DNA from: Alistipes sp.
GTDB taxonomy: Bacteria; Bacteroidota; Bacteroidia; Bacteroidales; Rikenellaceae
Direction of reading: 5' to 3'
Assembly (NCBI GenBank): GCA_022511355.1
Contig: JAFLRS010000001.1
Span: forward strand, 1 to 32,646
Length of the DNA: 32,646 nucleotides
The notes below the pieces were generated by a model. The model ran no database searches and was not told where the DNA came from. It was given only the letters and a program-made list of their open reading frames with translations. Within the stretch, counting starts at the first letter, position 1. Every line of letters starts with the position of its first letter. The position numbers and the translations under genes were made by a program. Of this stretch, positions 9,952-29,294 are shown piece by piece.

Positions 9952-9974
9952 ATCAATCAGGGTTGTATCAAGTA

Positions 9975-10006
9975 CAAAGATATTATTTTGGCGGCGAAAA
10001 TCCAAA
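9975..10006 (-). promoter_or_regulatory. Internal Bacteroidota primary-sigma promoter for malQ and the M64 gene
   Basis: On the minus strand: TTTG (10006-10003), 20 nt, TATCTTTG (9982-9975). Exact match to TTTG-N19-21-TAnnTTTG. Confidence 0.8.
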
Positions 10007-10008
10007 GG

Positions 10009-11877
10009 TTATCGACGTTTGAACTCCACTACCATCGACTTGCGCGGCCCGACCTTCATCGGTTCGCCCACCGTGACGGACTCTCCCGTCAGCACGTCGC
10101 GGCCGTCGCAGAGCGAATCCGTGATTTCGGCATAGTCGCTCCACGGAATGCTTTTGGCTCCGCGTGAGTTGTTGATATAGACCAGTACGGCATCCGTATC
10201 GTCATAGCGGAAGTAGGCGTAGGTGTTGTCGCGCGTGAGGAAGTGCAGCGTGCGGCCCGAATGTATCACCTTCTTGTTCTTGCGCCAGTTGAACAGACGC
10301 GTCGTATGGTTGTAGACATCGGCGGCACCGCCTTTCAGATTCGACGGCTCGAAGGCGTTGAACTTGTCGCCGCGCCAGCCGCCGGGGAAATCCACACGCA
10401 GACCGCCATGCCCCTGCGACGGGTCGGCCGAAACGAACATCTGCTCGTCGCCGGCGAAAATCTGCGGGATGCCCCTCATCGTGGCCAGCATGGTCATCGC
10501 GAGCTTCACGCGGTCGGGATTGCGGCGCACGACATCGGCTATGCGGTCGGTATCGTGATTGCCGGCGAAAATCATCATGTGCGACAGATCGTTATACACG
10601 AAGTCGTGCGACAGCACGTCGTAAATCTTCACCATGCCGTTGTTCCACTTGAGCGAATCGGTCGGCAGAGCCTGCACCATGGCCTCCTGCAGCGGAAAGT
10701 CCATAATCGAGGGCAGATGCGAATTGAATCCGTCGCGGTTGGGGTTGTCGGCCTGCCAGTAGGCCAGCTGAGCCGACGAACCGGTCCAGCACTCCCCCAC
10801 TATGTTGATGCAGGGATATTCGTCACGCACGGCGCGGCACCACTCCGACATGGGCAGCTTTTCGTTGTAGGGATATGTATCGACACGCAGACCGTCCAAA
10901 TCGGCATACTCTATCCACCATACGGCCCACTGCTTGAAGTATTGCAGCAGGAAAGGATTGTCGAGATTCATGTCGGGCATCGAGACGTCAAACCACCCCT
11001 CCTCGTTGAGTTTGAGGTCGTGCCGCGAGGCATTGGGGTCCATATTCGTCGAGAAGAGGGCGTTGGTGCGCGTAAAGGTGTCGAACTGATGAATCCAGTC
11101 GTTGAAAGGCGGATTCCCGACCCACCAATGCGACAGTCCGCAGTGGTTGGTAACGATGTCCATTATGATTTTCAATCCGCGCGTATGCGCCTGACGCACA
11201 TATTCGCGGTAGAGTTCGTTGGTGCCGAAGCGCGGGTCGATTTTGTAGTAATCGGCGCAGGCGTAGCCGTGATAGGAGTAGAAAGGTTCATCGTCGAGCA
11301 GCAGCGGCGTGGCCCATATCGCAGTGGCACCCGTACCGGCAATGTAGTCGAGATGGTCGATGATGCCCTGAATATCTCCGCCGTGACGGCCCGAAAGATG
11401 ATGCCGTGCCGTCTCCTCCCGCGTGTCGTCGGTCTCGTCGATAGAGGGGTCGCCGTCGGCGAAGCGGTCGGGCATAAGCAGATATATCATATCGGCCGTC
11501 GAGAATCCCTGCCTCTCGCGCGAACCCTCGCGCCGTTCGGCTATCACGTATTCGATAACCGTTTCGGAACCCGTCTCGTCGGTGAGAACCAGACGGTATG
11601 TACCCGCAGCGGCATCGGCATCTATCTCCACATCGGCGAACAGATAGTCGGGACTGTCGGCCCGATGAACGGCCGTCACCCGCAGACCCTCGGTGCCGTC
11701 GGCCGCAGAGAGGCTGCATCCGCCTATGTTTTTGCCGTAAAGCATCAACTGCAACGGCGTATTCATACCCGTCCACCACGACAGCGGTTCCACGCGTTCT
11801 ACGCGTCCGTTGTTTGCAAATGCGCTCACCGTCATACTCAATACCGCAACGACAGACAGCAATCTTCTGACAATCAT
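10009..11877 (-). CDS. susA: GH13 neopullulanase/cyclomaltodextrinase, SusA-like, periplasmic
   Basis: 622 aa. SPI signal, N-domain VEPLSWWTGM..PLQLMLYG, YLLMPDRFADGD, DIVTNH, DGLRVDTYPY, IVGECW, GNHDTDR. Confidence 0.9.
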   Translation of the reverse strand: MIVRRLLSVVAVLSMTVSAFANNGRVERVEPLSWWTGMNTPLQLMLYGKNIGGCSLSAADGTEGLRVTAVHRADSPDYLFADVEIDADAAAGTYRLVLTDETGSETVIEYVIAERREGSRERQGFSTADMIYLLMPDRFADGDPSIDETDDTREETARHHLSGRHGGDIQGIIDHLDYIAGTGATAIWATPLLLDDEPFYSYHGYACADYYKIDPRFGTNELYREYVRQAHTRGLKIIMDIVTNHCGLSHWWVGNPPFNDWIHQFDTFTRTNALFSTNMDPNASRHDLKLNEEGWFDVSMPDMNLDNPFLLQYFKQWAVWWIEYADLDGLRVDTYPYNEKLPMSEWCRAVRDEYPCINIVGECWTGSSAQLAYWQADNPNRDGFNSHLPSIMDFPLQEAMVQALPTDSLKWNNGMVKIYDVLSHDFVYNDLSHMMIFAGNHDTDRIADVVRRNPDRVKLAMTMLATMRGIPQIFAGDEQMFVSADPSQGHGGLRVDFPGGWRGDKFNAFEPSNLKGGAADVYNHTTRLFNWRKNKKVIHSGRTLHFLTRDNTYAYFRYDDTDAVLVYINNSRGAKSIPWSDYAEITDSLCDGRDVLTGESVTVGEPMKVGPRKSMVVEFKRR

Positions 11878-11894
11878 CCCGAAACGTGCTTATT

Positions 11895-13181
11895 CTATTT
11901 AACGCTCAGTATCATGTATCCCCACGGATTAAGGCTGAATTCGGTATTGTCGCCCATAGCCGTGAAATTTACGGCCTCGTCCGAGAGGTTGAACATACAC
12001 AGCACACTGTCATCGCCCTTCGTGCGGGTAAATGCCAGCGTATTTTCGGGTACTCCTTCAACGTATTCGAACTTGCCGCCGCGCTCTCCGGACTCAAGTG
12101 CGGGATGTGCATGACGCACAGCGCACAACCACTTGTAGAACTCGGTGTATTCGTTGGGTTCGAGCGAGGGCAGCGGGTCGGCCTCGAAGAATTCGAAACG
12201 ATGGTCGTAACCCACCTCCTGACCGGTATAAATCAGCGGCTGTCCGTTGGGAAGCACGAATGTGAGAGCGGCCATGCACTTCACGGCATCGCCCATGCGT
12301 TCGAATTCGGTACCGTTCCACGAATTTTCATCATGATTGGAGGTGAACATCAGTCGGAAAGCCTCGTGCGGAGTATCGACCGCATCGCGGGCTATATACT
12401 CCTTGAGGTCGGCTGCTCCCTTTTCGCCCTGCGCGATGTCGTTGAGCAGATGATGCAGCTCCCATGCATACGAAGCGTCAAAAGCCTCGATATGCAGTTC
12501 GGGTTTCTCGCCCTCGGCCAGCAGATAGAGGTCGGGATTGACTTTGCGCAGCTCGGCGAATGCGTGACGCCAGAAGTCTATCGGAATTTCGCCCGCAACG
12601 TCGCAGCGGAAACCGTCCACACCCTTGTTCACCCAGAAGAGCATCGATTCGAGCATCGCCTCGCGCATATCTTCGCAATCGTAGTTGAGTTTGGCTATGT
12701 CGGTCCAGTCATACTGCACCACGGGTTCGCCGTTCTCGTCGCGGACATACCACTCGGCAGGCTTGCCCTCTATCCACAGCGCATCGGGCGAGGTATGGTT
12801 GGCCACCCAGTCCAGAATCACGCGCAAACCGAGCCGGTGAGCCTCGGCGAGGAACGATTCGAAATCGGTCATCGTTCCGAATTCGGGATTGATGTCGCAG
12901 TAGTTCGAAATCGCGTAATAGGAGCCGAGCGTACCTTTGCGGCCCTTTTCGCCTATCGGATAGGGCGGCATCACCCACACTATATCGACACCCATATCCT
13001 TGAGTGCGGGCAGATAGGCTTCGGCGGCCGCGAACGAATGTTCGGGCGTAAGCTGACGCACATTAAGCTCGTAGACCACCGTATTGTAACTCCATTCGGG
13101 GTGAGCCGGATGTCGGGCGGCATCTCTGCCGCAGCTCCAGAGCAGCATCGCGCCGAGGAGCAGAGTGAAAATCTTTTTCAT
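11895..13181 (-). CDS. GH13 alpha-amylase family lipoprotein
   Basis: 428 aa. Lipobox LWSC, YELNVRQ, LGSYYAISNY, DWVANH, GVDGFRCDVA, LAEGE, FTSNHDEN. Confidence 0.92.
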   Translation of the reverse strand: MKKIFTLLLGAMLLWSCGRDAARHPAHPEWSYNTVVYELNVRQLTPEHSFAAAEAYLPALKDMGVDIVWVMPPYPIGEKGRKGTLGSYYAISNYCDINPEFGTMTDFESFLAEAHRLGLRVILDWVANHTSPDALWIEGKPAEWYVRDENGEPVVQYDWTDIAKLNYDCEDMREAMLESMLFWVNKGVDGFRCDVAGEIPIDFWRHAFAELRKVNPDLYLLAEGEKPELHIEAFDASYAWELHHLLNDIAQGEKGAADLKEYIARDAVDTPHEAFRLMFTSNHDENSWNGTEFERMGDAVKCMAALTFVLPNGQPLIYTGQEVGYDHRFEFFEADPLPSLEPNEYTEFYKWLCAVRHAHPALESGERGGKFEYVEGVPENTLAFTRTKGDDSVLCMFNLSDEAVNFTAMGDNTEFSLNPWGYMILSVK

Positions 13182-13203
13182 CGTATTGACCGTTTTGTAT
13201 TTT

Positions 13204-15300
13204 CTAATTGAACTCTATGATATTGAACGAATTGCCATCCAATCCGATTCGCAGCGTTCCGTCGCTTTCGAGAGTCTCGCTGCCCGCAAAATGCAGATGT
13301 GCCGGCGGAGATATCCGCAGAGAGTCGGGAACACGTATTTCGACGGTTCGGCTCTCGGGCGAATTGTTGAACGCCGCCACCACGCACTTGCCCATGTAGA
13401 CGCGGGCGAAGACCCACACATCGCGGTCCGACGCAAGCGGCACCATATCGCCGTAGAGCAGCGGCATCGAGGAGCGTCGCAAAGCCGTCAGAGCCTTCAC
13501 CTTCCCGCGCAGAGCCTTTTCGTCGTCGTTGTATCCGTCGAAAGCCATCATGCGTCTGTTGTCGGGGTCGTTGGCTCCCGGCACTCCGTATTCGTCGCCC
13601 TGGTAGAAGCACGGAACACCCGGAATGGTGCATATCATCGCCTCCAGCAGTGCCAGTTTGCTGTAACCCACAGGGTCGCCTACCCCTATTTCGCGCCGCC
13701 AACCCGCCAATTTGGTATCTTCGGACGGGTCCACCGCTCCGCCCGCAACCGATATGAAGCGGGGTTTGTCGTGGTTGCCCGTAATGTTGCCCATCGTGTG
13801 ATGCGAGCCGTAATTGGCCGCCGACTCCGCAACCGTGCGCGCAATCTCCGACATATCGCCGTTCGAAGCCAGCACGTCGATTGCCGTGTGGTAGAAGTTG
13901 AAGTCGAACTGCGCGTCTATCATTCCCGTCTTCACGTAGGAGCCTATGAGTTCGGGCGAACCGTAGGTTTCGCCTATCTGCCACAGAGCCCGGTCGGGGA
14001 AACGACGCTTCATTTTGCGGCAGAGCATTCGCCAGTAGTTCTCGGGGATATGCTTGCAGGCGTCGTGACGGAAGCCGTCGAAATCGTACTCGGCAATCCA
14101 GTAGAGAGCCGAATCGGTCAGCGGTTCGCAAATCTCGTCGCGTTCGAGGTCGAGGGTCGGGATGTGAACGTCGAACCACGTGGTAAGACGCTGTTCGTCC
14201 CACAGCTCCAGATTGCGTCGGCCGTCGGGCAGATACATCGAAGTGGTCCAGTCGGGATGCGCCTTCAGAACCGGAGAGTCGATGTGCATATGGTTGGCCA
14301 CATAGTCGAGCACGACATTCAAATCGCGGGCATGAGCCGCATCCAGCAATTCGCGCAACTCGGCATCGGTACCGAAACGGGTGTCTATCTGCGTGAGATA
14401 TATGGGCCAGTAGCCGTGATAACCCGAGAATCGGGTGAACGGGTCGGCATTCAGACCCCATGCATCAAAGGGATTCTGGGTAACGGGCGAAATCCACACC
14501 GTCGATATCCCCAACTCGTTGAAGAAACCTTCGTTAATCTTGTCGGTGATGCCCTTGAGGTCGCCGCCGTAATAATCGACTTTGGGCAGGACATCCTCAC
14601 GATTGAGAGGACGGTCGTTGTCGGGATTTCCGTTCGCGAAACGGTCTATCATCAGCGAATACAGCACCTGCGTATGCGCGTCATGACGATTCAGTTCGCG
14701 GGCATCGGCAACCGCACGGCCATACTTCAGCGGAATCAGAATATCGTTGTAGAGCCCCTCTTCGCCGGCGGCATACACCCTTATAAACGAACGTTCGAGC
14801 GAAGCCGCATCATGCGGAACCGCCACTGCAAAACCTCCGTTGCACCGCACGACCGAACTTTCGGGCAGACGGCAGTTCTGCCACATGGCCTCGATTTCGA
14901 CCGGTTCGCCGTCGGCGGCCACCGTTATCATACCCGACTCGAGACCTGTCGTAAACATATTCTTCGAGTCGTCGCGCCGGCCCTCCAGAACCGTCACCGA
15001 CACGCATCGGCCGTCGCGCCACACCTCGAGCGTCGAGACCGACGGACAGCCGCGTCCCTCGATGTCGAACTCGCTCCAGTCGGCCGCGGCATTGCTCAGC
15101 ACCGCTCCGACCGAAGTCACCGAATCGGCACCGTCCCACTGCGGAAGGTAGTCGGTAAGAAAAACGTGCTGAACTCCGCTCTTGAGCCGCAACGGATAGA
15201 TGGGCGCACCGTCACCCTGCGGGGCGGCATTGTCAAACAGCCTCTCGCGGCAGCAGGCGGCGGCAGTCACGACCGCAAAGAGCAAAAAGAGTCTCTTCAT
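13204..15300 (-). CDS. GH13 alpha-amylase/neopullulanase-like lipoprotein with uncharacterised N-terminal region
   Basis: Start reassigned to ATG 15300 (MKRLFLLFAVVTAAACC, lipoprotein signal). Motifs YSLMIDRFANGN, YHGYWP, DYVANH, FDGFRHDACKH, IGETYG, GNHDKPRF. Confidence 0.9.
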   Translation of the reverse strand: MKRLFLLFAVVTAAACCRERLFDNAAPQGDGAPIYPLRLKSGVQHVFLTDYLPQWDGADSVTSVGAVLSNAAADWSEFDIEGRGCPSVSTLEVWRDGRCVSVTVLEGRRDDSKNMFTTGLESGMITVAADGEPVEIEAMWQNCRLPESSVVRCNGGFAVAVPHDAASLERSFIRVYAAGEEGLYNDILIPLKYGRAVADARELNRHDAHTQVLYSLMIDRFANGNPDNDRPLNREDVLPKVDYYGGDLKGITDKINEGFFNELGISTVWISPVTQNPFDAWGLNADPFTRFSGYHGYWPIYLTQIDTRFGTDAELRELLDAAHARDLNVVLDYVANHMHIDSPVLKAHPDWTTSMYLPDGRRNLELWDEQRLTTWFDVHIPTLDLERDEICEPLTDSALYWIAEYDFDGFRHDACKHIPENYWRMLCRKMKRRFPDRALWQIGETYGSPELIGSYVKTGMIDAQFDFNFYHTAIDVLASNGDMSEIARTVAESAANYGSHHTMGNITGNHDKPRFISVAGGAVDPSEDTKLAGWRREIGVGDPVGYSKLALLEAMICTIPGVPCFYQGDEYGVPGANDPDNRRMMAFDGYNDDEKALRGKVKALTALRRSSMPLLYGDMVPLASDRDVWVFARVYMGKCVVAAFNNSPESRTVEIRVPDSLRISPPAHLHFAGSETLESDGTLRIGLDGNSFNIIEFN

Positions 15301-15316
15301 AATGCAAATATATCTA

Positions 15317-16543
15317 TTATTCGGCAACGTCGAGCATCCAGTCGATGCCCTCGTGCAGTTTGTTGTTGTCGCTGAAGTCCCAGTAGGAGTTGTTCTCCCA
15401 CGTCGAACCGTGCGCCCAGTCGGCCGGATAGGTGTAGATGTTGTTCGAGGGCAGCGATTCGGTGCCCCACGTGATGACTCCGAGACCGCCGGCATTCTTA
15501 ACCTCTTCGGCGAGCTGTCGCAGCCATTCGCGCTGCGCCGCGGGCGAAGTGTTCAATGACGTCTGCTCTTTCCATGCCGGATAGTTGTAGGAGTTGTTGC
15601 AGTTGTCGCCGCGGTCGTGAATGAACGTATAGGCCGTTTCGAGTACCATGAAGCCGCAGCCCTTGTTCTTGAGAGCCGAACATATTCCGCTGAATGAGGC
15701 ATAGCTGCCCGAACCCATCTTGTGGGAGATGCCCTCGCCCGGATACCACGACACGCCCACCATATCGTAATCGGTGCAGCCGTACTTCTCCAAATCGCGC
15801 ATATACCACTCTATCTCGGAGGGTCCTGCCACGTGCAGCAGCGACTTGACTTCGGGATTGCAGAGTTCGGCATATTCGCGCACCGCCTTCAGACCCGCAT
15901 TGAGGTTCGAAGCCTGACGGCTCATATCCCACCGATAGTTGTTCACCGGAGCCAGAAACTCCACATTGAGTTCGTTGCCCACGGCCACCACGCGCGGAAA
16001 TATACCCTCCTGCGCCAGTCTGTAAAGCACGTCCAACACCCAGTCGTGCAGACGGCGGTTAATCTGTTCCGTGCTGAGCGTCTGCCAATCTCTCGGCAGA
16101 CGGTTGTGGTCGGTCGATTGCCCGTCGTGATAGATGTCGGCATCGGGTTTGAGCGTCAGCATGATGTCCAATCCGCACGCACGAGCCTTTTTGGCATCGG
16201 CCAGCACGCGTTTGTAGGTCGCCCAGTCGATGGACGCGCCGTTATAGGAGGTGTACCGCGAAAAATCTTCGTAGTTGAGCTGCAAACGCACGATATTGGC
16301 TCCGTGCCGTTTCATAAGTTCATAGGGGTCGGCGGCCGTTCCGTCCGTGTCGCGGTAGACAAGCCCCGCATCCTGCTCGTAGCTTGCAAAACACATCGTG
16401 GAACCCTTCATGAATCCCTCCGAGAAGTAGCCCGGAAACTCTATCGGCTCATACGACTGACTCTTCTTTCCGTCGCCGCCGTCCTCCTTGTCGCAGGCCG
16501 CGAACGCAGCCAGACCGAGAAGTGCTAAAAATATCTTTTTCAT
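15317..16543 (-). CDS. GH53-like (endo-beta-1,4-galactanase fold, clan GH-A) lipoprotein, divergent
   Basis: Start reassigned to ATG 16543 (MKKIFLALLGLAAFAAC). GANIVRL, AKKARACGL, VAVGNELN (acid/base), DMVGVSWYP, MVLETAY (nucleophile), GSTWENN. ATGA overlap with the upstream stop. Confidence 0.8.
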   Translation of the reverse strand: MKKIFLALLGLAAFAACDKEDGGDGKKSQSYEPIEFPGYFSEGFMKGSTMCFASYEQDAGLVYRDTDGTAADPYELMKRHGANIVRLQLNYEDFSRYTSYNGASIDWATYKRVLADAKKARACGLDIMLTLKPDADIYHDGQSTDHNRLPRDWQTLSTEQINRRLHDWVLDVLYRLAQEGIFPRVVAVGNELNVEFLAPVNNYRWDMSRQASNLNAGLKAVREYAELCNPEVKSLLHVAGPSEIEWYMRDLEKYGCTDYDMVGVSWYPGEGISHKMGSGSYASFSGICSALKNKGCGFMVLETAYTFIHDRGDNCNNSYNYPAWKEQTSLNTSPAAQREWLRQLAEEVKNAGGLGVITWGTESLPSNNIYTYPADWAHGSTWENNSYWDFSDNNKLHEGIDWMLDVAE

Positions 16544-18621
16544 AACTGTTGGTCTATGGCATCGGTCTCCTCCACGGTGAGCGTGGGAGCGGTGCCCCAT
16601 TTAAGCGTGAATTTAAGTTTGCGTGCGCCGTCGTTGCCCGTATTGCGGACCGTCTGGAACCACTGACCGGCATCATAACCCGATTTGCCTTCGTTGGCAA
16701 TCATCGGAATGCGTCCGGCGGCTATATCCTGTTCGGGCTCCTTCGAGGTCACATAGTAGTCGCAGTAGGGACTGTCGGCCGAAGAGAGCAGGTCGAGGAA
16801 CCACGGATGAGCGACGCTCGTGTGATTGATAACCCAGTCCATATAGATTTTTATGCCGTGACGGTGTGCCTCGTCGATAAGTTTCCGGAAATCGGCCTCC
16901 GTGCCGTACACCTCATTGAGTGCTTCGTAGTCGAGTACATCGTAGCCGTGATACGACGATGCGGGATGCGCGGGCGAGAGCCACAGAGCCGAAACTCCCA
17001 GTTTGTCGAGGTAGTCGAGCTTGGCGGTTATGCCGTTGAAGTCGCCCGTACCGTCGCCGTCGCTGTCGGCAAAGGAGTAGATAAGCAGCTGATACGACAC
17101 ATCGGCACGCTTCTCGCCGTCCCACTCTCCGACCGCGGTGCCGCCGTCGAGCAGAGCCACCCACGACGAATATCCTTTCATCGAGAGTTCCGTCTTGCCG
17201 CCCTCGGCCGTCGTAACGGTGACATCGCCGAGCGTAGCCGCCGTAGCCGTAACATTGTCGTTCACAGTGAGCTTCGACTCTTTGGTCGTGAAGTTGTGAA
17301 CCACCATCATCTTCTGACCTTCGGCCTCCATGTACCATGCGGCCACGGGCAGATATTCGGATTTGCCCGAGAAGTCGGGATGTGGAGTCATCTTTCCGTG
17401 CGCAAGTGCGGGACAGGTGTTGCGCAGCTGCGAGAATTTGCGGTAGACGTTGAGAATCGACGACTCGTCGCCGTCCTGCACCGAAGCATCCTTAACCGCA
17501 TTCATGCCCGATTCGGCCTGTTTGATGAAGGTGGTGGTCGTGTTGTCGCCCCACTTCATCGGATTGCGTACATACTCGTCGCCCTTGCCGTTTTTGATGC
17601 CCACGTAGCCCAACTCTTCGCCGTAGTAGATGTAGGGCGAACCCGAAGCCGTAAGCAGCACGGCACCCGCCAGTTTGGCCTTATCCTCGGAACCGCCGAG
17701 GAGCGATTTCACACGGTCTTCGTCATGATTGGTCAGTTTGGTCGAGATTATGTAGTCGGGCCGTATGGCGGCATAGCCGTCGCGATAGGTTTTGAGGTCG
17801 TTTGCGAAGTAGCAGCCCGCAGACTGTTTGAACGCCCATTCGAGACGATACCAGAATGCGAATTCGAAGATGCTCGGCAGACCCTTGAGGTATGGAGCTG
17901 CGGCCGCATAATCGTCGTAGACCTCGCCCACGAGGTAGAAATTGCCCTCGCGGCCCTTGCTTTTGTGATAGCCGTTGAGTTCGTCGTAGAATTTGCCCCA
18001 GAATGTGGGATTCTCGTCCGATGAGGCATCGTGGTATATGTGCTTGGCGCCATCGAGACGCAGACCGTCCACACCCATGTCAATCCACTTTTTGGCCGCA
18101 TTGCAGATGGCCGCAAAAGCGGGCGAATTTTCGCATGAAGCGGCTGCTCCGTAGTCGATATCGGCGAATGCCGGAGTCCAGAAGTGCGAATGATACATCA
18201 GCGGCTCCATCCACGGAAGCAGAATGTTGCTCGGGTCGTAGCTTGCCGAACTGGCTCTCAGAGCGAGAGGTTTGCCGTATTCGAGATTGTTTTTGCCGGC
18301 AACCGCACCGTATTTCGTACCGGCGCTCCATGCGGTGTCGCTGGTGCGCACCAGACATCCCCACGAAGAGTCCATCTCCAACGAAAGGGTGTAGGTGTTG
18401 TCGCCCTGAAAGATGAACGGAGCGATTTGGGCATCGCCGTAATAGAGGAATCGGTCGGAGGCCGGTTTGCCGATATTCTCATCGGGTTCTTTGCCGCCGT
18501 CGCCGTCCGAAGGGTCTTTGGTGACGGGCGGAGCCAGCGGTTCGTCCTCGTAGTCGGAGCAGGCGGTGAATGCAGTGGTCATCATGACCGCAGCCGCCAA
18601 CATGAGAATTGCTTTTTTCAT
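16540..18621 (-). CDS. susG: SusG-like surface alpha-amylase (GH13 + CBM58), circularly permuted
   Basis: 693 aa, lipobox FTAC21. Order: CBM58 C-part (LYYG..SWG.LVRT..W..GTKYG), GVDGLRLD190, VGE233, TNHD300, domain C, and then WDGEKRADVSYQLLIYSFADSDGDG, YHGYD, DWVINH600 and KFTLKW at the C-terminus. Confidence 0.93.
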   Translation of the reverse strand: MKKAILMLAAAVMMTTAFTACSDYEDEPLAPPVTKDPSDGDGGKEPDENIGKPASDRFLYYGDAQIAPFIFQGDNTYTLSLEMDSSWGCLVRTSDTAWSAGTKYGAVAGKNNLEYGKPLALRASSASYDPSNILLPWMEPLMYHSHFWTPAFADIDYGAAASCENSPAFAAICNAAKKWIDMGVDGLRLDGAKHIYHDASSDENPTFWGKFYDELNGYHKSKGREGNFYLVGEVYDDYAAAAPYLKGLPSIFEFAFWYRLEWAFKQSAGCYFANDLKTYRDGYAAIRPDYIISTKLTNHDEDRVKSLLGGSEDKAKLAGAVLLTASGSPYIYYGEELGYVGIKNGKGDEYVRNPMKWGDNTTTTFIKQAESGMNAVKDASVQDGDESSILNVYRKFSQLRNTCPALAHGKMTPHPDFSGKSEYLPVAAWYMEAEGQKMMVVHNFTTKESKLTVNDNVTATAATLGDVTVTTAEGGKTELSMKGYSSWVALLDGGTAVGEWDGEKRADVSYQLLIYSFADSDGDGTGDFNGITAKLDYLDKLGVSALWLSPAHPASSYHGYDVLDYEALNEVYGTEADFRKLIDEAHRHGIKIYMDWVINHTSVAHPWFLDLLSSADSPYCDYYVTSKEPEQDIAAGRIPMIANEGKSGYDAGQWFQTVRNTGNDGARKLKFTLKWGTAPTLTVEETDAIDQQL

Positions 18622-18656
18622 ATCCTGAAACAGATTTTTTAATCGGTTCGATAGCA

Positions 18657-18684
18657 GTCGGCGTGCCGATCAAAGCACGCCGAC
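18657..18684 (-). other. Intergenic 10-bp stem-loop without U-tract (between susF-like and susG)
   Basis: GTCGGCGTGC / GCACGCCGAC with an 8-nt loop. No poly-U follows on the coding (minus) strand. Confidence 0.65.
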
Positions 18685-18706
18685 CAAAGGTGTCCGGAGT
18701 TCGGTT

Positions 18707-20080
18707 TTAGAACTCCTCGACAGTCGTCTGTCGGGCGGTGAGGTCGATTGTCACAACGACACTCTTGCCAATCATCTCCTCGACGGGATAGAAGTTCCTG
18801 TCGCCGACTTCGATAGGGGTGTCGAACTCGGTCTGCACTCCTTCGGGTGCGCCGTAGCTCTCAGCCCAATCGCCGTCCTTGCGAATCTTGAATTCGGTTC
18901 CCGCAATGAACGGAACGCTCTTCCATTTGCCGGACTCGACCTCGTACATCGCGACGTCGAAATTCCAGTTGGTGCCGTTGATGGTACCGATGACGCTGTA
19001 TGTGGTGAAGAAACGGTCTACCGTAAGGCTCTCGTCCGAGGCATTGAGCGTAAGCACCACGGGGATGCCTGCGAAGCCGTCGGCCGACATATCGCTGCTG
19101 CCGCCGCTGTTCTCGAGCGTGAATGGCTGTCCGTACTCTTCGAATATACCGCTGCCCCAGTTGAAGGAGTCGTCGTTCCACGCGTTGTCCTTGCGGATTT
19201 TGAACGTGTTGCCTTCCGAGAAGAGAATCGGATAGCTCTTATAGACATCGGAAGAGGTTGAGGTGAGTTTGTAGCTGTCGTTGTCCCAGCCGTTGGGCAG
19301 ACCGTTGCCGATTATACCCGCACCTGCAACGCCGTCATAGAGGGTTATGGTGGCATTCTTGCTGTCGTAAACCACATAGTAGAGACCCTCGGCAGCCTTG
19401 CAGTTGCCGCCGCCCGAAGCAAGAGCCGCAACGGGCGAACCCACGGTCAGCGAAGCCTCCGCAACGCCTGCCTCATGGTCCCACGAATTGTTGTAGTGGA
19501 GTTTGAATTCGCCGCCGTCGCCGAGCGAGAAAACAGGGCTTATCCACTTGCCGTCTTCGCCTGCGGTCATGTAGAGTTCCGAATCCCAGTTGCTGTCGTT
19601 GATTGTTCCGATAACCGACCACAGACCTGCGGGAATTACAGGCTGAGCCCCTGCCGTCAGCACGATTTCCACGGCTGCAGGCTCCGAAACCAGAACCTCG
19701 TTTGCGGTCGCCGCCGTGACGGTCAGCATAATGGAGCCGTCTTCGTTTTCGGGCATACCCGCGGTGTTGATGAGCCAATCGCGGAAGTCGGCCTTTCTTA
19801 TCGAATAGAAGAGTCCGGCGATGTCGTCGGCCAGCGTATTGGTATTTTCGCCGTAAGCGACATCGAGAGAGTAGAGTATCTCGCCCGTAACGTTGCGTGC
19901 CGCGCTCCAGTTGAACGACACAATCTCATCGGCTGTGGCCTCCGAGAGTACGACTGCATTGTGGGCGGTGATTACGGGAGCCACGGGATCGGTCGAGAAG
20001 AGATCCGTCGGTTCGGGCTGACAAGCGGTGGTCATAACCGCTGCAGCTGCCATCATCGTTAAATATTTGAAAATTTTCAT
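18707..20080 (-). CDS. SusF/SusE-type surface starch-binding lipoprotein (N-terminal Ig domain plus three CBM-like repeats)
   Basis: 457 aa. Lipobox TTAC, FNWSAA, and three repeats WSVIGTINDSNWD / GIIGNGLPNGWD / YSVIGTINGTNWN, each followed by (E/T)FK....W. Confidence 0.8.
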   Translation of the reverse strand: MKIFKYLTMMAAAAVMTTACQPEPTDLFSTDPVAPVITAHNAVVLSEATADEIVSFNWSAARNVTGEILYSLDVAYGENTNTLADDIAGLFYSIRKADFRDWLINTAGMPENEDGSIMLTVTAATANEVLVSEPAAVEIVLTAGAQPVIPAGLWSVIGTINDSNWDSELYMTAGEDGKWISPVFSLGDGGEFKLHYNNSWDHEAGVAEASLTVGSPVAALASGGGNCKAAEGLYYVVYDSKNATITLYDGVAGAGIIGNGLPNGWDNDSYKLTSTSSDVYKSYPILFSEGNTFKIRKDNAWNDDSFNWGSGIFEEYGQPFTLENSGGSSDMSADGFAGIPVVLTLNASDESLTVDRFFTTYSVIGTINGTNWNFDVAMYEVESGKWKSVPFIAGTEFKIRKDGDWAESYGAPEGVQTEFDTPIEVGDRNFYPVEEMIGKSVVVTIDLTARQTTVEEF

Positions 20081-20099
20081 CGTTATTCTCTTTTGTTTA

Positions 20100-20139
20100 T
20101 TGCGGGGCGGAGTTCGCTTTGCGGCTCGTCCGCCCGCAA
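20100..20139 (-). other. Intergenic stem-loop without U-tract (between susE-like and susF-like)
   Basis: TTGCGGG(G)CGGA ... TCCGCCCGCAA imperfect inverted repeat. Confidence 0.6.
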
Positions 20140-20166
20140 CTCATTAAAATCTCAATTTCCTCTCCG

Positions 20167-21246
20167 TTATTCGGCGGCTACGTATTCGACCAAACACGGA
20201 GTACGGTCGGCATAGAGCTTCACATACCACTTGCCGGCAGGCATATCGATATCAGCGCCGCCATCGACAAGCTGATAAGCTTCGCTTACGCCTTCGGGAA
20301 GATTCTCTCCCAGTTCGGTGCCGCCGCCCAACTTGGCAGTCCAGTCGTCATTGAGACGGAACAGATACTTTACGTCCGAACCTGCAGTATCCACCGGATC
20401 CTGACTCGTCCATACGTTCGACTCACTGTCGTATACCATGGTTATGGCAACAGCCCAGCCGTCCCAGCCGCCGATAATCACGAGGTTGGGAACCGACACG
20501 ACCTCCACCGACTTGGCACTCATGTTCACCGTAATGCGGTAGGCACCCGGAGTAACCTGGAAGTTGTGGTTGTCGCCATCGACATCCTCAACGCCCGACG
20601 ATACCGAATCGAATTTGTCGTATCCGGTCCAGTCGGGGGTCAGGAACTTGAACTGACCGTTGGAGCCGGTCAGGTCGTAGATACCCGAATAGACATTGGT
20701 TCCGCCGTCGGTCTCCCACATTGCGACGGGAGACATACCATCGTTACCCCAGTTGCAGAAGTCGCCGACAAGCTGAATCGTGCGCAGACTTGCCTTGTAG
20801 GTCGCAACGTTGAAGTATACGGTGTTGGAGGGAGCCGAATGGATGTCGGAATCGCCCACATAGGCGGTAACATAGGCACCCACTTCAGCCGATTCGTTGG
20901 CTGCCACCTCGAGCCCGTTCACCACGGCGCCGTTGATGTCGTTCTTGGTAACCGAAATCGAAGGCGTATAGGACATGGCCAAATCTGTTGTTTTGCCGCC
21001 CAGAGCGAGAGTAACCACATAGCGAATCTGAACGGGTTGTCCGAATCGGGCAGGCGTGCAGTTGAACACTACGGTTTCGTTCTTGTGGTCGCCATCCACG
21101 AGGATGTCGCCGACCTCCGCGAGTACGGGAGCCGTGAATTCTTCCTCGGAGACAAGCTGCCGCTGCTCGATGTCGGCAGTGCAGCCGACGAACGCAAATG
21201 CCGCGGCGCACATCGTCATCAAAAACTTTATATATTTCATAATCAT
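20167..21246 (-). CDS. SusE-type surface starch-binding lipoprotein (Ig domain plus two CBM-like domains)
   Basis: 359 aa (alternative start 21240). Lipobox FVGC, F.CTPARFG...Y, LVGDFCNW..QFKF, IIGGWDGW..FRLNDDW. Directly downstream of susD. Confidence 0.8.
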   Translation of the reverse strand: MIMKYIKFLMTMCAAAFAFVGCTADIEQRQLVSEEEFTAPVLAEVGDILVDGDHKNETVVFNCTPARFGQPVQIRYVVTLALGGKTTDLAMSYTPSISVTKNDINGAVVNGLEVAANESAEVGAYVTAYVGDSDIHSAPSNTVYFNVATYKASLRTIQLVGDFCNWGNDGMSPVAMWETDGGTNVYSGIYDLTGSNGQFKFLTPDWTGYDKFDSVSSGVEDVDGDNHNFQVTPGAYRITVNMSAKSVEVVSVPNLVIIGGWDGWAVAITMVYDSESNVWTSQDPVDTAGSDVKYLFRLNDDWTAKLGGGTELGENLPEGVSEAYQLVDGGADIDMPAGKWYVKLYADRTPCLVEYVAAE

Positions 21247-21272
21247 CTACTTTTTAAGCATTTAACTCTCCA

Positions 21273-23069
21273 TTAATAGCCCGGATTCTGTACCAGAGCC
21301 GGATTCGCAGCCAAATCGGAACCGATAATCGGATAGACTATGCGGTGAGGTTCGATCGACGACTGGGTGCCGGCTGCGACACCTCCCTTGTAGGGCCATG
21401 CCTTGGTGTTGATAAACATATCGTAGCGGATAAGGTCGGTACGACGGTGACCCTCCCACATAAGTTCGCGAACACGCTCTTTGAGAATCCATTCGGCATC
21501 GATGGTCTTCTCAATGGCCGAAGGCATATCGTAGTGTACGCGGTCGCGCAGCTCCTTCAGATACTGATAACCCTCATCGCCGTCGGTGAGAGGCGCATTC
21601 TTGGAACGGGTCTGTGCCTCGGCGTAGATAAGGTACATCTCGGCCAGACGATAGAGCGGGAAGTCGCACGACGAAAGCTTCGCGGTGTGGTTTATCGGGT
21701 CGTAATAGTCGGCAACCGTACCGTCGCTGTTGACGGGGAGCCACTTCACGCAGGTGTAGCCCGAAGAGTTGTCGGTAGACTCGTTGGAGAATGCCGCATC
21801 GAACTTGTAGAAGCGTGCGCGGGGGTCGCCTTTATAGTTGAAGGCTCCCGACTCGACATTCTCCAGTTCGAAGTTCTCCTCGACGAAAGACTCCGATATG
21901 TGATAACCGTTCCACGTCTCTACATAGGCGTTGTCCACGCTGTACTCCTTGATCTTTTCGTTGTCGCTGTTGTCGGAGAGGAACTTCGAATATGCACTCT
22001 TCAACTCGGGATAGGATTCGTAAAGCTTGGCGGTAATGTCCATGGCCATTTCAGCATTGTGGAGGGGTCCGCTCACCAAATGGGTCGTTCCGCCCCAGCT
22101 CTGGGTGCGAGTGTTGTCATACGAAATGGGGATGATGAACTCTTTCAGTGCGGCGCCGCTCTCGGTGTTGTCCTGCATGAAGAGCTGCAGATAACCCTCG
22201 GCTCCCGTGCCCTGATTGAGCGAGAAACCGCCCTCTTCGATGACCTTCTTGGAGTAGGTCATGGCGTCGTCCCAGCGAGCCGTGCCCGAATATACCTCGG
22301 CATTGAGATACATACGGGCCAGAACAGCCCATGCGGCACCCTTCGAAAGACGGGGGTACTCGGTGCGGACGGCGGGAAGATTGTCGTCGGCAGCAATGGA
22401 TTTGAGTTCGGTTTCGAGATATTCGAACAGCATACGGCGTCCCTCGGCGAAATTCTTCGAGAACTGCTTGGGGAAATCCGACGAACCGATGTGCTTCGGC
22501 TCCACGATGGGAGGATTGCCTATCATGTCGAGCAGAATGCTGTAATAGATTGCGCGAATCAGACGCAGTTCGGCACGATAGCGGTGAATGTTGCCGAGCT
22601 GGTCGGCGTGACCGCGTTCGCGAACAGCTTCGTCGCCCGAAACCTCCGACGCGAGGAAGTGGTTGCAGAGTGCGATACCCTTCATGCCGCGCAGATATAC
22701 GGCCGTAACCGCGAGACAGGAACTGCCCCACTTGTTGTAACCTATTTCGGGGATATAGGAGTCGCCCCATCCGCACTTGAAGGAGTCGGTCGGCAACTCG
22801 TTGAGAACCATATACTGACGGATGAACTCCGACTGTCCGGCATCGGTGAATCCTGCGAGGTCGGTTTCTCCGGGGTTGCTCTGCGACACCATCGCGAAGT
22901 ATCCGTAGGCGTAGCTGACATACTGTGCATAGGAAGCAGGGTCGGCGAAAGCCTTGTCAGCCGTATTGACCGACGGGTCGATGGGCATCGTGTCGAGATC
23001 CTGCACGCACGAAACACACGCCAACGCCGCAAACAGAGTCGTTATGCTTGATATTATTGTCTTTTTCAT
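21273..23069 (-). CDS. susD: SusD family lipoprotein, starch-binding SusD subtype
   Basis: 598 aa. CVQDLDTMPIDP, NELPTD, LARMYLNAEVY, LFMQDN, WGGTTHL, DFPLYRLAEMYLIYAEA, ERVRELMWEGHRRTDLIRY, QNPGY. Confidence 0.96.
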   Translation of the reverse strand: MKKTIISSITTLFAALACVSCVQDLDTMPIDPSVNTADKAFADPASYAQYVSYAYGYFAMVSQSNPGETDLAGFTDAGQSEFIRQYMVLNELPTDSFKCGWGDSYIPEIGYNKWGSSCLAVTAVYLRGMKGIALCNHFLASEVSGDEAVRERGHADQLGNIHRYRAELRLIRAIYYSILLDMIGNPPIVEPKHIGSSDFPKQFSKNFAEGRRMLFEYLETELKSIAADDNLPAVRTEYPRLSKGAAWAVLARMYLNAEVYSGTARWDDAMTYSKKVIEEGGFSLNQGTGAEGYLQLFMQDNTESGAALKEFIIPISYDNTRTQSWGGTTHLVSGPLHNAEMAMDITAKLYESYPELKSAYSKFLSDNSDNEKIKEYSVDNAYVETWNGYHISESFVEENFELENVESGAFNYKGDPRARFYKFDAAFSNESTDNSSGYTCVKWLPVNSDGTVADYYDPINHTAKLSSCDFPLYRLAEMYLIYAEAQTRSKNAPLTDGDEGYQYLKELRDRVHYDMPSAIEKTIDAEWILKERVRELMWEGHRRTDLIRYDMFINTKAWPYKGGVAAGTQSSIEPHRIVYPIIGSDLAANPALVQNPGY

Positions 23070-23082
23070 ACTCTTTCCTTGA

Positions 23083-26000
23083 TTAGAAGTTAATGTTCAC
23101 ACGCAGAGTGTACAGACGCGGACGGGGAACGATGGTTCCTACTACGCCGTCCCAGCTGTTCACCTCGGGGTCGAGACCCGAGAACTTGGTGATGATGAAT
23201 ACGTTCTGAACCGACGCCGCCAAACGCATATTTACGCCCGACTTGTTGAGGTTGTGGAACGTGTAACCGAGGTTGATGTCATCCAGACGGAAGAACGATG
23301 CATTCTCGATGAACATATCCGAATAGTTCTGTTCCGTCGAATTCTGCTTCGTGAATCCGGTGCGGAAGTGGTATTCGTTGAAGTTGGTCAGGTGGTCATA
23401 GGCTATCGAACCCATATAGGTGGTCGAGCTGCCCAAAGCCAGACTGTTGATTGCATAGTTTCCGAGGGTTCCGTGACCGTTGAAACCGAAATCCCAATTC
23501 TTCCACGTCAGCTGGGTGCCGATGCCGAAGAAGAAGTCGGGAGTCGCGCTCTTGCCGGTGATGTATTTGTCATCGTCGGTGATGCGGCCGTCGCCGTTGC
23601 GGTCGATGAAGGTGTTCTGAATGGGCTTGCCCTTCGAATCGTAAGCCTGCTGGAACATATTGAAGGTGTAGGGTTCGTAGCCCTCCATGTGAACACCCGA
23701 GAATGCACTTCCCGTACCCGCCAGCTGCGAACCTATATTCACGCGGCTGCCGTTAAGGTCGGCGATGCGGGTCTGCTGCCACGTTCCGTTGAGGCTGATG
23801 GTCCAGTTCCAGTCCTTGGTCTCGACGGGAACGAAGTTCAACGCCACCTCGACTCCCTGATTGTGCATCGTACCGATGTTCGACATGATGCGGTCCGTGA
23901 AGTTCGAACCGGTCGGAACATCCACATAGCTCAACAGGTCGAAGGTTCTGCGGAAGTAGTAATCGACCGAACCGTTGATGCGGCCGTTGAGGAATCCGAA
24001 GTCGAAACCGGCATTGTAGGTCTCGGTGGTCTCCCATTTGATATTGGTGTTGTAGGGCTGGGGAGCCAGCGTGGCATCGCCGCCCAGATACTGACCGCGC
24101 GGGTCGGTTGCCTGATAGTAGGTCGCAATGTGGGGATAGAATTCGTCGCCGATATCCTGCTGACCCGTGCGGCCCCAACCCAAACGCAGTTTGAGTGCCG
24201 AAAGGAAATCCACGTTATTGAGGAAATCCTCCTGAGCCATGTTCCATGCGAATGCCGCCGAAGGGAAGAAGCCCCAACGGTTGTTCTTCGAGAAACGCGA
24301 AGTGGCATCCTCACGAATCGTCACCGTGAAGAGGTACTTCGAAGCCAGCGAGTAGTTCACGCGGCCGAAGAACGAAACCAGATAGTACTCTTTGGGGTGC
24401 GCCCAGCGCGACTGCGGAGTTTCGCTCGCCGAAGCCCACTGCGAACGGTCGTCGTTCTTCCAGTAGAGCGAACGGTACTTCACGTAGTTGTGCTGCCACG
24501 AATATCCGGCCATCACATCCAGATGATGGTCGCCGAACTCCTTGTTGTAGTCGAGATAGAACTCGAGCAGCGTATTGGCGTTGTAGTTGCGGTGCTTGCC
24601 GTAGGTGTCGTTGTTGCTGCGGAAGCTTCCGATGGAACCCAACTGATTGTACGAAACGTTTTTGGATTCGGTAATGTCGTAACCGAGGTTCAGATTGGCA
24701 CGCAGGTCCTCCAGTCCGTGAACCTTGTAGTCGAGCTGGATGTTGCCCAACGAACGCAGAGTAACGTTCTTGTTGTGCCAGTCGTAGATACGCGACAGCG
24801 GGTTATAGGCACCTGCATTCGGATGCGTCGGGTTGATGTAACCGTTGAACCATGCGTATGCGGGGTTGGCCGAAGCGGTAGGATCGCCGTTCTCGTCATA
24901 AACCATGTTTGCGGGTTTGGTCGGGTCGAACGAGAAAGCGTCGCCCGTCGCATTGTTGGTCCAGTTGGCCTGATTCCATACGCCTTTCACGTTGATGTTG
25001 GCTACCAGATGGTCTTTCAGGAACTTGGGCGACAGATTGAAGCCCACATTCACGCGGGTGTTCTCACCGCCGCGAACCGTACCCTGATCGTAGTTGGCTC
25101 CCACGCTCACGCGATAGGGAAGCTTGTCTTTCAGAGCGCTGCCGTAGACCGAAATATTCTGGTCGGTGGAGAATGCCGTGCGGTAGATGAGTTTCTGCCA
25201 GTCGGTGTTGTAGTTCACGCCGTTGTAACCCATCAGACTCTCGGCCTTTTCGCGGTCGGCGGGATGTGCGTCCAACCAGCCCTGACCCTCATACTTGCCC
25301 TGACCGTACATATAATCGACATATTCGGAACCGGTGAGGACCTTCACATGGCTGGCATTGGTCTTGACGCTGTAGCTCGAATCGTAACTTACCGAGACCT
25401 TTTTGCCCTTGCCCTTTTTGGTGGTGATGAGGATGACGCCGCTCGATGCTCGCGAACCGTAAATGGCGGTTGCCGAAGCATCCTTGAGGACGGTGTAGGT
25501 TTCGATGTCGTTGGGATTGACCGAAGCCAGCGGATTCATACCCGAACCTCCGTCACCCGTTACGGGCACGCCGTCGATGACCACGAGGGGGTCGTTGCTT
25601 GCATTGAGCGAGGCTGCACCGCGAATACGAATCTGTGCGCCTGCGCCCGGTTCACCCGTTGCCGGAGTAACCAGCAGACCCGGAACCTTGCCCATCAGCA
25701 GCTGATCGGGCGAATTCACGGCACCGCGGTTCACATCCTCGGCCTTGATGGCCACTACGGAACCAGTCATGTCGTTCTTCTTGACCGAGCCGTAACCGAT
25801 AACCACCACCTCGTCGAGCGACATGAGATCCTCTTCGAGAGTGAGTCGTTTCAGCAGCTCCGATGCGGCAACCAGCTCTACGGTCTTGTATCCCATATAG
25901 CTGACTTCCACCACAGCATTTTCATTCGACACCTTCAACGTATAGTCGCCGTTGAAATCGGTCGAAACTCCGTTCGCCGTGCCCTTCTCTACCACCGTCG

Positions 26001-26136
26001 CTCCGATAACCGGCAGACCCGTGGCATCCACCACGGTACCCTGCACGGTATAGCTACCGTTCTGCGCCGATGCGAGGGGGGGGGTAATCACGCCTAAAAG
26101 GCTAATCCCCAAGCAAATAGCAATGAATTTTCTCAT
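23083..26136 (-). CDS. susC: SusC family TonB-dependent transporter (starch/maltooligosaccharide subtype)
   Basis: 1017 aa. VVVIGYGSVKK, IRIRGAASLNASNDPLVVIDGVP, VLKDASATAIYGSRASSGVILITTKKG, NTDWQ, KWETTET.N.G.DFGFLNGRI, ENASFFRLDDINLGY, C-terminal Phe. Confidence 0.97.
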   Translation of the reverse strand: MRKFIAICLGISLLGVITPPLASAQNGSYTVQGTVVDATGLPVIGATVVEKGTANGVSTDFNGDYTLKVSNENAVVEVSYMGYKTVELVAASELLKRLTLEEDLMSLDEVVVIGYGSVKKNDMTGSVVAIKAEDVNRGAVNSPDQLLMGKVPGLLVTPATGEPGAGAQIRIRGAASLNASNDPLVVIDGVPVTGDGGSGMNPLASVNPNDIETYTVLKDASATAIYGSRASSGVILITTKKGKGKKVSVSYDSSYSVKTNASHVKVLTGSEYVDYMYGQGKYEGQGWLDAHPADREKAESLMGYNGVNYNTDWQKLIYRTAFSTDQNISVYGSALKDKLPYRVSVGANYDQGTVRGGENTRVNVGFNLSPKFLKDHLVANINVKGVWNQANWTNNATGDAFSFDPTKPANMVYDENGDPTASANPAYAWFNGYINPTHPNAGAYNPLSRIYDWHNKNVTLRSLGNIQLDYKVHGLEDLRANLNLGYDITESKNVSYNQLGSIGSFRSNNDTYGKHRNYNANTLLEFYLDYNKEFGDHHLDVMAGYSWQHNYVKYRSLYWKNDDRSQWASASETPQSRWAHPKEYYLVSFFGRVNYSLASKYLFTVTIREDATSRFSKNNRWGFFPSAAFAWNMAQEDFLNNVDFLSALKLRLGWGRTGQQDIGDEFYPHIATYYQATDPRGQYLGGDATLAPQPYNTNIKWETTETYNAGFDFGFLNGRINGSVDYYFRRTFDLLSYVDVPTGSNFTDRIMSNIGTMHNQGVEVALNFVPVETKDWNWTISLNGTWQQTRIADLNGSRVNIGSQLAGTGSAFSGVHMEGYEPYTFNMFQQAYDSKGKPIQNTFIDRNGDGRITDDDKYITGKSATPDFFFGIGTQLTWKNWDFGFNGHGTLGNYAINSLALGSSTTYMGSIAYDHLTNFNEYHFRTGFTKQNSTEQNYSDMFIENASFFRLDDINLGYTFHNLNKSGVNMRLAASVQNVFIITKFSGLDPEVNSWDGVVGTIVPRPRLYTLRVNINF
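26076..26084 (-). repeat. C9 homopolymer (G9 on the plus strand) in the susC2 signal-peptide coding region (in frame)
   Basis: Coding strand ACC CCC CCC CTC (T-P-P-L) at codons 18-21. Confidence 0.9.
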
Positions 26137-26198
26137 AGATTTTTAAGTGTTGGTTAATTAAATTGGTTTGGTTTTGTTTCTGTTGTTTTCAGCAGGTT

Positions 26199-27509: not shown

Positions 27510-27546
27510 ATTTTTCAATAATTCAATTTTAAGCGCATAGTTTTAG

Positions 27547-27586: not shown

Positions 27587-27659
27587 GACGAATTGCAGAT
27601 TTCGTATGACGAACTGACGATTCGAATGGATGAAATGCAGCAGACCGCCGCCGAATTTA
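27587..27659 (-). promoter_or_regulatory. LytTR-type direct-repeat operator array (4 copies, 21-bp period)
   Basis: Plus-strand GACGAATTGC (27587), GACGAACTGA (27608), GATGAAATGC (27629), GCCGAATTTA (27650). Minus-strand copy TCAGTTCGT fits the LytTR consensus [TA][AC][CA]GTTN[AG][TG]. Confidence 0.75.
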
Positions 27660-27780
27660 TCTGTCGAAACCGCTTGCCGCACATTGCCGCGGCATCGGAG
27701 GCGCGACGCCGTTCCGACGCTTCGGCCGACACCCTCCGACAGATAATAAAATTTTTGAAATATCTCTTTATCCGACGCGA

Positions 27781-27812
27781 TTTGTTTTTTAATGAAAAAT
27801 ACACTACTTTTG
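27781..27812 (+). promoter_or_regulatory. Primary-sigma promoter of the lytS/lytTR operon
   Basis: TTTG (27781-27784), 20 nt, TACTTTTG (27805-27812). 20 nt upstream of ATG 27833. Confidence 0.8.
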
Positions 27813-27832
27813 ATACGCAAGCAACCGACAAC

Positions 27833-29260: not shown

Positions 29261-29294
29261 CACTTACCTCACCTCCAATCAAAAAGCCAAACTT

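Follow-up and report, generated by a model that had tools for sequence, protein, structure and literature searches.

A naturally circularly permuted SusG-type GH13 protein in a starch locus of Alistipes sp.

A stretch of 32,646 nucleotides from Alistipes sp. (assembly GCA_022511355.1, contig JAFLRS010000001.1, positions 1 to 32,646; the whole stretch is called the window below) carries on its minus strand a gene for a SusG-type protein of glycoside hydrolase family 13 (GH13), susG, in which the parts of the enzyme stand in an unexpected order. The locus raises the question whether this gene is a real circular permutation, and if so where the chain was opened, by which route the new order could have arisen and whether the product can still serve as a cell-surface amylase. 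The gene was analysed by sequence and profile searches, public contigs, trees and structure prediction. That it encodes a naturally circularly permuted SusG-type GH13 protein, and that the observation is real, we regard as virtually certain.

Order of the parts in the chain

The gene is a single open reading frame of 693 amino acids (16540-18621, minus strand) in which the motifs GVDGLRLD190, VGE233 and NHD300 stand ahead of SYQLLIYSFADSDGDG, LWLSP, YHGYD and DWVINH600, giving the motif order II-III-IV-I. SusG of Bacteroides thetaiotaomicron was its best match among solved structures, and phmmer against SusG (PDB 3K8K) returned two swapped blocks: residues 49-489 aligned with chain positions 227-665 (E 2.4e-127) and residues 487-681 with 21-211 (E 7e-72), corresponding to about 250-688 and 44-234 in SusG numbering. 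SusG numbering was set as chain index + 23, because the 669-residue chain ends at 692 and this offset reproduces the numbers that PMC5735674 and PMC4173775 give for W287, W299, N330, W460, Y469 and D473. A preliminary description, made from the sequence alone, had proposed the II-III-IV-I order and a dot-plot or alignment with two swapped blocks as its check, and had named a colinear alignment as evidence against it; the blocks were swapped. Its placement of SusG D388, E431, W460, Y469 and D498 at D190, E233, W262, Y271 and D300 with one constant offset of 198 was reproduced by the phmmer alignment, and both the linker DGGTAVGE at 17125-17148 and the ATGA overlap of stop and next start at 16540-16543 lie where it had put them. 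Pfam families PF00128, PF20756 and PF23915 all scored above their cut-offs.

The same order was found in related proteins. Among 182 proteins compared, 7 were swapped, 174 normal and 1 partial. The permuted relatives comprise the query's 90% cluster (4 members), P0003/P0124 at 70-71% identity and P0004 at 66-67%; P0003/P0124 and P0004 are colinear with the query over 99% of its length, and the cut and the 8-residue length of the linker are common to the three lineages; in all of them, seven residues separate LLD from the W of WDG.KRAD.

Along the minus strand, the protein was divided as follows. The lipoprotein signal peptide noted earlier is present (residues 1-21, 18559..18621) and ends at Cys21, which is kept in 7/7 permuted proteins; it is followed by an acidic export-signal-like start (SDYEDE) and a Pro-rich tether (residues 22-50, 18472..18558), predicted to be disordered and homologous to the leader of normal-order relatives. 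Next comes the later, larger part of the carbohydrate-binding module CBM58 (residues ~51-136, 18214..18471) with sugar-binding Y60, D63, W87, L90, W98, K103 and N132, equivalent to SusG Y260, E263, W287, L290, W299, K304 and N330. The second half of domain B and the barrel from alpha3-beta4 to alpha8 (residues ~137-409, 17395..18213) contain motifs II, III and IV with catalytic D190, E233 and D300 and the surface site W262, Y271 and D275. The domain C beta-sandwich (residues 410-491, 17149..17394) is now internal and in one piece (Pfam SusG_C profile positions 1-62 of 62 at residues 426-488), and the linker (residues 492-499) connects this old C-terminus to the old barrel start. Beta1-alpha1-beta2-alpha2-beta3 and the first half of domain B (residues 500-~664, 16630..17124) carry motif I with D595 and H600, and the chain closes with the first two CBM58 strands (predicted at 667-674 and 680-685; 16540..16629), now C-terminal, where the stop overlaps the next start. 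For the trees below, residues 48-491 are called part B and residues 500-693 part A.

The break point corresponds to about SusG 234-250. With the CBM58 profile, normal-order P0005 matched positions 5-115 of 117, permuted P0003 began at 28 and P0004 at 34; the start of CBM58 absent from the N-terminal piece (KLKFTLKWG...TLTVE) forms the C-terminus of the permuted proteins. The alignments thus place the cut inside CBM58, a module that interrupts domain B between beta3 and alpha3; CBM58 is therefore split, and would be built from both chain ends. The preliminary description had put the permutation in domain B between beta3 and alpha3; this position stands, but the cut falls within the module inserted there, so that the module is divided as well. 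The junction is clean: P0003 ends EQVDKIEN and normal P0005 reads EQVDVVEN followed by SGTKATDRFLYYG, while the first folded segment of P0003 reads QQATDKFLYYG, so almost no residue was lost or repeated at the cut, in agreement with the earlier view that the parts had been reordered rather than lost.

Junctions, rarity and descent

Contigs, not raw reads, from four public runs (X1-X4, recorded as gut and rodent metagenomes) were aligned to the region. In X1, a contig of 1241 nt (16275-17515, 12 differences) bridges the junction from domain C to beta1 and the stop, and one of 845 nt (17739-18583, 8 differences) bridges the leader junction; X1 is taken to be another strain because it differs by ~1% from the window. 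A contig of 298 nt in X2 (18424-18721), from a second study, also bridges the leader junction. X3 and X4 yielded short pieces only, no single contig covers the whole gene, a second alignment at 80% likeness gave no further contig bridging a junction by 31 letters on both sides, and no RNA dataset was found among the listed public runs carrying the region. Two checks proposed in the preliminary description thereby came out in its favour: the junctions are bridged, at contig level, in X1 (both) and X2 (leader), and the junction recurs in two further lineages at 66-71% identity. Two loose ends of X4 contigs, at 17290 and 17343, were read by eye (22-30 letters) as domain C DNA matching permuted P0004, which suggests that the P0004 lineage was present in the same kind of gut sample.

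The permuted order is rare. Named relatives belong to Alistipes and other Bacteroidales. The junction query matched 67 of 376 same-genus genomes, and the whole junction was covered only in the window's own; 40 of the other 66 matches were taken, chosen for long reading frames, and the order was normal in 40/40 loci examined. A junction-centred protein search gave full coverage only for P0002-P0004 (best 120 of 1833 matches). Among the best 150 matches of a profile search of 1.84 billion 50% representatives there was one full-length single-stretch match, P0003; the other 149 were normal (136) or partial (13), none swapped. Junction DNA patterns, both with fixed linker length, gave 1 match in genome contigs (L012), taken as chance as it is without similarity to any window gene, and 0 in metagenome contigs. 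Of 80 metagenome loci, 75 had the normal order and 4 were partial; the remaining one (L115) scored as swapped only via a 39% match ~2 kb downstream, which was read as a neighbouring GH13 gene, and the locus was rejected. A family-wide search of 401 genomes returned no further permuted member and a plasmid search no match. Permuted variants are easily missed, because colinear annotation tools call them ordinary SusG-like proteins with the same three Pfam families as their sisters. The architecture of the family is variable in other respects: some same-genus SusG-like genes (L005, L006 and others; frames of ~555-600 amino acids) seem to be without CBM58, query residues ~49-143 being unmatched, and many same-genus SusG-like proteins carry an N-terminal BACON-type domain (PF13004/PF19190).

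Trees were computed for 48 of 72 non-redundant proteins and for a 24-row subset. In the part-B tree the permuted trio (support 74/88) requires a single change of order. It groups at 100/99 with normal P0005, P0007 and P0008, and normal P0006 and P0014 branch outside this clade; in the part-A tree support for the trio was weak (56/12). Constraining the five nearest normal proteins to one clade was rejected (p value of the approximately unbiased test 1.3e-8), a figure that is optimistic because the constrained group was named after the tree had been seen. Because the trio nests inside normal-order SusGs the permutation is taken as derived, and these sequences indicate that it is probably single in origin. 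The identity of the normal sisters to P0003 reaches 77% in part B and 82% in part A. Four residues shared by the trio are absent from the five nearest normal proteins, three of them in domain C; A489, beside the linker, is common to the trio, occurs in 0/45 normal proteins and may be an adjustment to the new join.

Leaders were scored against a control set of 110 unrelated lipoprotein leaders; shuffle z-scores were discarded, because any signal peptide scores well. P0003 versus P0005 scored 120 (best control 61) and permuted P0001 versus four sisters 52-70 (best control 44), so that the leader is taken as inherited from the normal-order gene; the score of P0004 overlaps the controls. GC content at third codon positions was 0.70-0.71 in all three gene segments. 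The simplest route, which fits here, would be duplication followed by trimming: one in-frame duplication of the coding body would create the join of domain C to beta1, and the first A part and last B part would then be lost from the duplicated body, the tolerated cut site probably being a loop of the inserted module. Permutation by duplication has been proposed for GH70, according to PMC4919382. A search for a duplicated intermediate, a weak one, gave 2 long matches among proteins of 1214-3465 amino acids, neither of them a tandem SusG.

Predicted fold, function and starch locus

With 61 aligned rows, AlphaFold2 gave a mean predicted local distance difference test score (pLDDT) of 88.4 and a predicted template modelling score of 0.84; 4/5 models exceeded 84, only residues 1-46 fell below 50, the linker block scored 82 and the two C-terminal CBM58 strands 95 and 91. 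The best fold match of the model was SusG (Z 27.8, root mean square deviation (rmsd) 6.5 Å, 436 residues aligned); over the SusG rows the structural aligner covered residues 50-493 (rmsd 6.2-6.5 Å over 434-438 residues), and for SusG and most GH13 rows its alignment ended at residue 493 or close to it. It crossed the junction for GH70 GtfD 8FN5 (model 152-624, Z 19.3, rmsd 4.1 Å, 383 aligned) and GtfB 8FKL (model 172-598), and Foldseek aligned 610 columns to GtfB 7P38 versus 336-469 for GH13 rows. A closed barrel is thus predicted, with part A completing it in GH70 order as these alignment ranges indirectly indicate, together with a CBM58 assembled from both chain ends. The model asked for in the preliminary description was therefore confident and had SusG as its best fold match, but the superposition was loose and ended at residue 493; the high rmsd probably reflects the angle of CBM58.

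The clan residues R188, D190, E233, H299, D300, D595 and H600 and the CBM58 residues Y60, W87, L90, W98 and K103 are invariant in 7/7 permuted proteins, and in these seven the equivalents of SusG E263 and N330 are limited to D or E and to N or D, respectively. Mutation of W287, W299 or N330 abolishes CBM58 binding in SusG (PMC4173775). The surface site is kept in two lineages. A signal ending at Cys21, acidic residues behind it resembling the export signal SDDFE (as given in PMC5080379) and SusC/SusD genes upstream are all present, and the protein is predicted to be a surface lipoprotein of a SusC/SusD locus. Its hydrolytic character would follow from residues and gene context: D190, E233 and D300 would carry out retaining hydrolysis of alpha-1,4 glucans, with the products passed to SusD/SusC as in the Bacteroides Sus. 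As eight residues suffice to connect domain C with beta1 in the permuted protein, beta1 of SusG must be close to the end of domain C; CBM58 of SusG stands out from domain B and makes no contact with the core (PMC5735674). Since the permuted tether leads into CBM58 and that of SusG into beta1, the anchor would have changed ends, the lipid tether holding the enzyme by CBM58 instead of by the barrel/domain C end.

The starch locus (10009..27518, minus strand) comprises genes for a major facilitator superfamily (MFS) transporter, SusC, SusD, two SusE/F-like proteins, the permuted SusG, a GH53-like lipoprotein, two GH13s and a SusA-like GH13; a GH77 gene lies beyond the last (7732-10005). Gene context was mapped in 20 same-genus relatives: all have a normal susG on the downstream side of SusC/SusD, downstream GH13 genes are present in 19/20 and a GH53-like gene stands directly behind susG in 5/20. 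The permuted gene occupies the usual susG slot of the starch locus, and a second susG was not found in its own genome, which is 79% complete. We consider it likely that the locus's own susG was rearranged so that the chain starts inside CBM58, and that the product folds like SusG and works as a cell-surface alpha-amylase; that it is an active SusG-like amylase is, from the residues and the locus, equally well favoured.

Several observations weigh against this interpretation. All 7 permuted sequences come from metagenome-type assemblies, and junction support consists of contigs. Monophyly of the trio is only moderately supported, the leader score of P0004 overlaps those of the controls, and no duplicated intermediate came out of the weak search, so that the duplication route stays a proposal. 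Among the three permuted lineages, locus context was seen for that of the window, and a normal copy could remain elsewhere in the incomplete genome. P0004 has lost the surface site (W262D, Y271N, D275T), with its CBM58 residues kept. A first AlphaFold2 model, from 27 aligned rows, reached a pLDDT of only 71.5; SusG structures predate AlphaFold2 training and may flatter the model; at the rmsd observed, the placement of CBM58 may differ or be wrong; and the alignment range is an indirect sign of barrel closure because some cyclodextrin glucanotransferase rows also reach residue ~644.

An assembly artefact could be suspected, as the source genome is fragmented (217 contigs) and junction support is at contig level, but bridging contigs from other strains and a second study, together with proteins at 66-71% identity that share both junctions, make it a negligible explanation, and a clean in-frame leader fusion would not be expected three times from an artefact. 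Because other-strain contigs bridge both junctions and two further lineages share cut and linker, the gene is not a misassembly, and this alternative is already largely refuted. A recent, non-functional rearrangement that is drifting would agree with the rarity of the form (junction spanned in 1/376 same-genus genomes) and with at least 6 of 15 listed strain differences changing an amino acid; it is very improbable given that, in lineages differing by 29-34%, the frame is still open, every catalytic residue is present and the linker has the same length. The natural permutation claimed in the preliminary description, with a GH70-like motif order in a SusG-type GH13, thus held on sequences, contigs, trees and structure model.

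If the permuted SusG is real and selected, its function could still have changed, CBM58 having become a non-binding stalk or the activity having shifted towards transglycosylation as in GH70. CBM58 is cut, the overall fit of the model to SusG is loose (rmsd ~6.3), P0004 is without the surface site and the locus has three other GH13s and a GH77. We think this change improbable, as the aromatic platform and K103 of CBM58 are invariant over three lineages, motif I keeps the GH13 His and not the GH70 Gln described in PMC4919382, and PMC9732880 argues that transglycosylation preceded permutation in GH70 and that permutation changed the core little. A less remote, though still doubtful, alternative retains gene and function and concerns the route alone: the body may have passed through an excised circle, or part A may have been moved to a position behind part B, in either case with no duplicate that persisted, or the order may have arisen several times. 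No tandem or fused intermediate was seen among the proteins of 1214-3465 amino acids, the locus has no internal DNA repeat and tree support for the trio is not starred; old intermediates would, however, be expected to vanish, and the identical cut, equal linker length and shared N456, A459 and A489 favour a single origin. The end product is identical by every route, so this alternative is compatible with a working SusG-like amylase.

Around the gene, an 11-bp hairpin with loop TTTGATCG (18656..18685, minus strand) lies in the 5' intergenic region of the permuted susG. The same element, with the fixed loop TTTGAYCG, stands upstream of normal-order susG genes in relatives (loci L023-L027, L030, L031, L033, L034, L088 and L124-L131); the window and 120 loci scanned gave 19 distinct matches, with one copy in the window's own genome. 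In 13 aligned copies all cells pair and 9/11 pairs change on both sides, a figure partly owed to construction because copies were selected for having a stem. Rfam had 0 matches in the window, hairpin included, and a sigma-70 promoter scan was uninformative for this bacterial group. The hairpin may act in RNA processing or stability, or may bind a protein, and so set susG levels. The GH53-like lipoprotein (15317-16543, minus strand; Pfam E 3e-50) lies immediately after susG within the starch locus; members of GH53 are usually beta-galactanases. Just past the MFS gene (27593-30062, plus strand) are a sensor-kinase-like reading frame (by eye, no NCBIfam match) and a LytR-like response regulator, a possible regulator of the starch locus.

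Comparison with SusG, GH70 and MalS

SusG (PDB 3K8K/3K8L/3K8M/6BS6) and the permuted protein have the same domains, catalytic triad, CBM58 residues, lipoprotein signal and SusC/SusD/SusE-F locus, with ~46% identity over the larger block; the surface-site residues are also common (lost in P0004). Unlike SusG, the permuted protein has the order II-III-IV-I, an internal domain C, CBM58 in two pieces and a tether that enters at CBM58. Motif I-IV residues, domains A, B and C with CBM58, and descent within the SusG clade are those of a SusG (subfamily GH13_36); the canonical order I-II-III-IV with C-terminal domain C and one-piece CBM58 is absent. It was filed as a permuted variant and not as a plain SusG member because of its motif order and split CBM58.

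The barrel permutation has long been taken as a mark separating GH70 from GH13 (PMC4919382). Permuted GH70 enzymes run alpha3-beta4 to alpha8, domain C, then beta1 to beta3, according to the same paper, and according to PMC9732880 both ends of the GH70 chain fall in domain IV, which unpermuted GtfC carries as a single domain B insert and GtfB as two halves in swapped order. Most GH70 members (glucansucrases, branching sucrases, GtfB 4,6-alpha-glucanotransferases) thus share barrel order and motif order II-III-IV-I with the permuted SusG, and in both, the two ends of the chain lie within an accessory domain that domain B carries as an insert (domain IV versus CBM58). The permuted SusG differs from GH70 in the motif I His (H600, 7/7) in place of the Gln of glucansucrases and GtfB, in CBM58 in place of domains IV/V and in a mere 17% identity to GtfD in the structural alignment; the GH70 Pfam profile gave no match at E<=0.001 for the query and none at E<=1 for P0003 or P0004. 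By these sequences the permuted protein is not a GH70. It is a Bacteroidales lipoprotein, unlike the GH70 enzymes of lactic acid bacteria, and has an independent origin from SusG.

For GH70 the route has been modelled from distantly related enzymes, and according to a survey of 2024 the order in which the permutation events took place is difficult to reconstruct (PMC11299179). In the permuted SusG the barrel has undergone this topological change a second time, and so recently that unpermuted sisters still exist at up to 77-82% identity. On balance we favour, with some reservation, the view that the protein is an active GH13 amylase of a kind not described before, that its GH70-type permuted barrel represents a second, independent opening of the clan GH-H barrel between beta3 and alpha3, and that it has a starch-binding two-piece CBM58 and its anchor at the opposite end. 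If so, inserted accessory domains would be a preferred gate to barrel permutation in clan GH-H. The permuted protein also provides a natural two-piece CBM, and it would allow a test of whether anchor position affects the hand-over of starch from SusG to SusD/SusC.

The preliminary description knew of no account of such a form. The literature consulted mentioned no permuted SusG or permuted-barrel GH13, a statement that covers main texts and few subscription papers, so that supplements and GH13 subfamily tables could mention some; the permuted barrel thus appears new, but a permuted GH13 is already in print, as Escherichia coli MalS (GH13_19) is described as a circularly permuted amylase in PMC10223318 and mentioned in PMC10647339 and PMC11299179. 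As given there, domain C of MalS is split (120-180 + 646-676), so that its chain reads C-A-B-A-C, with domain B as the sole interruption of domain A; in the permuted SusG, unlike MalS, domain C is intact and the break in the barrel falls between beta3 and alpha3. The normal sisters P0005, P0007, P0008 and P0006 have a homologous leader and the normal order; they are natural matched controls, and such a pair would allow the effect of permutation on folding, specificity and transglycosylation to be isolated.

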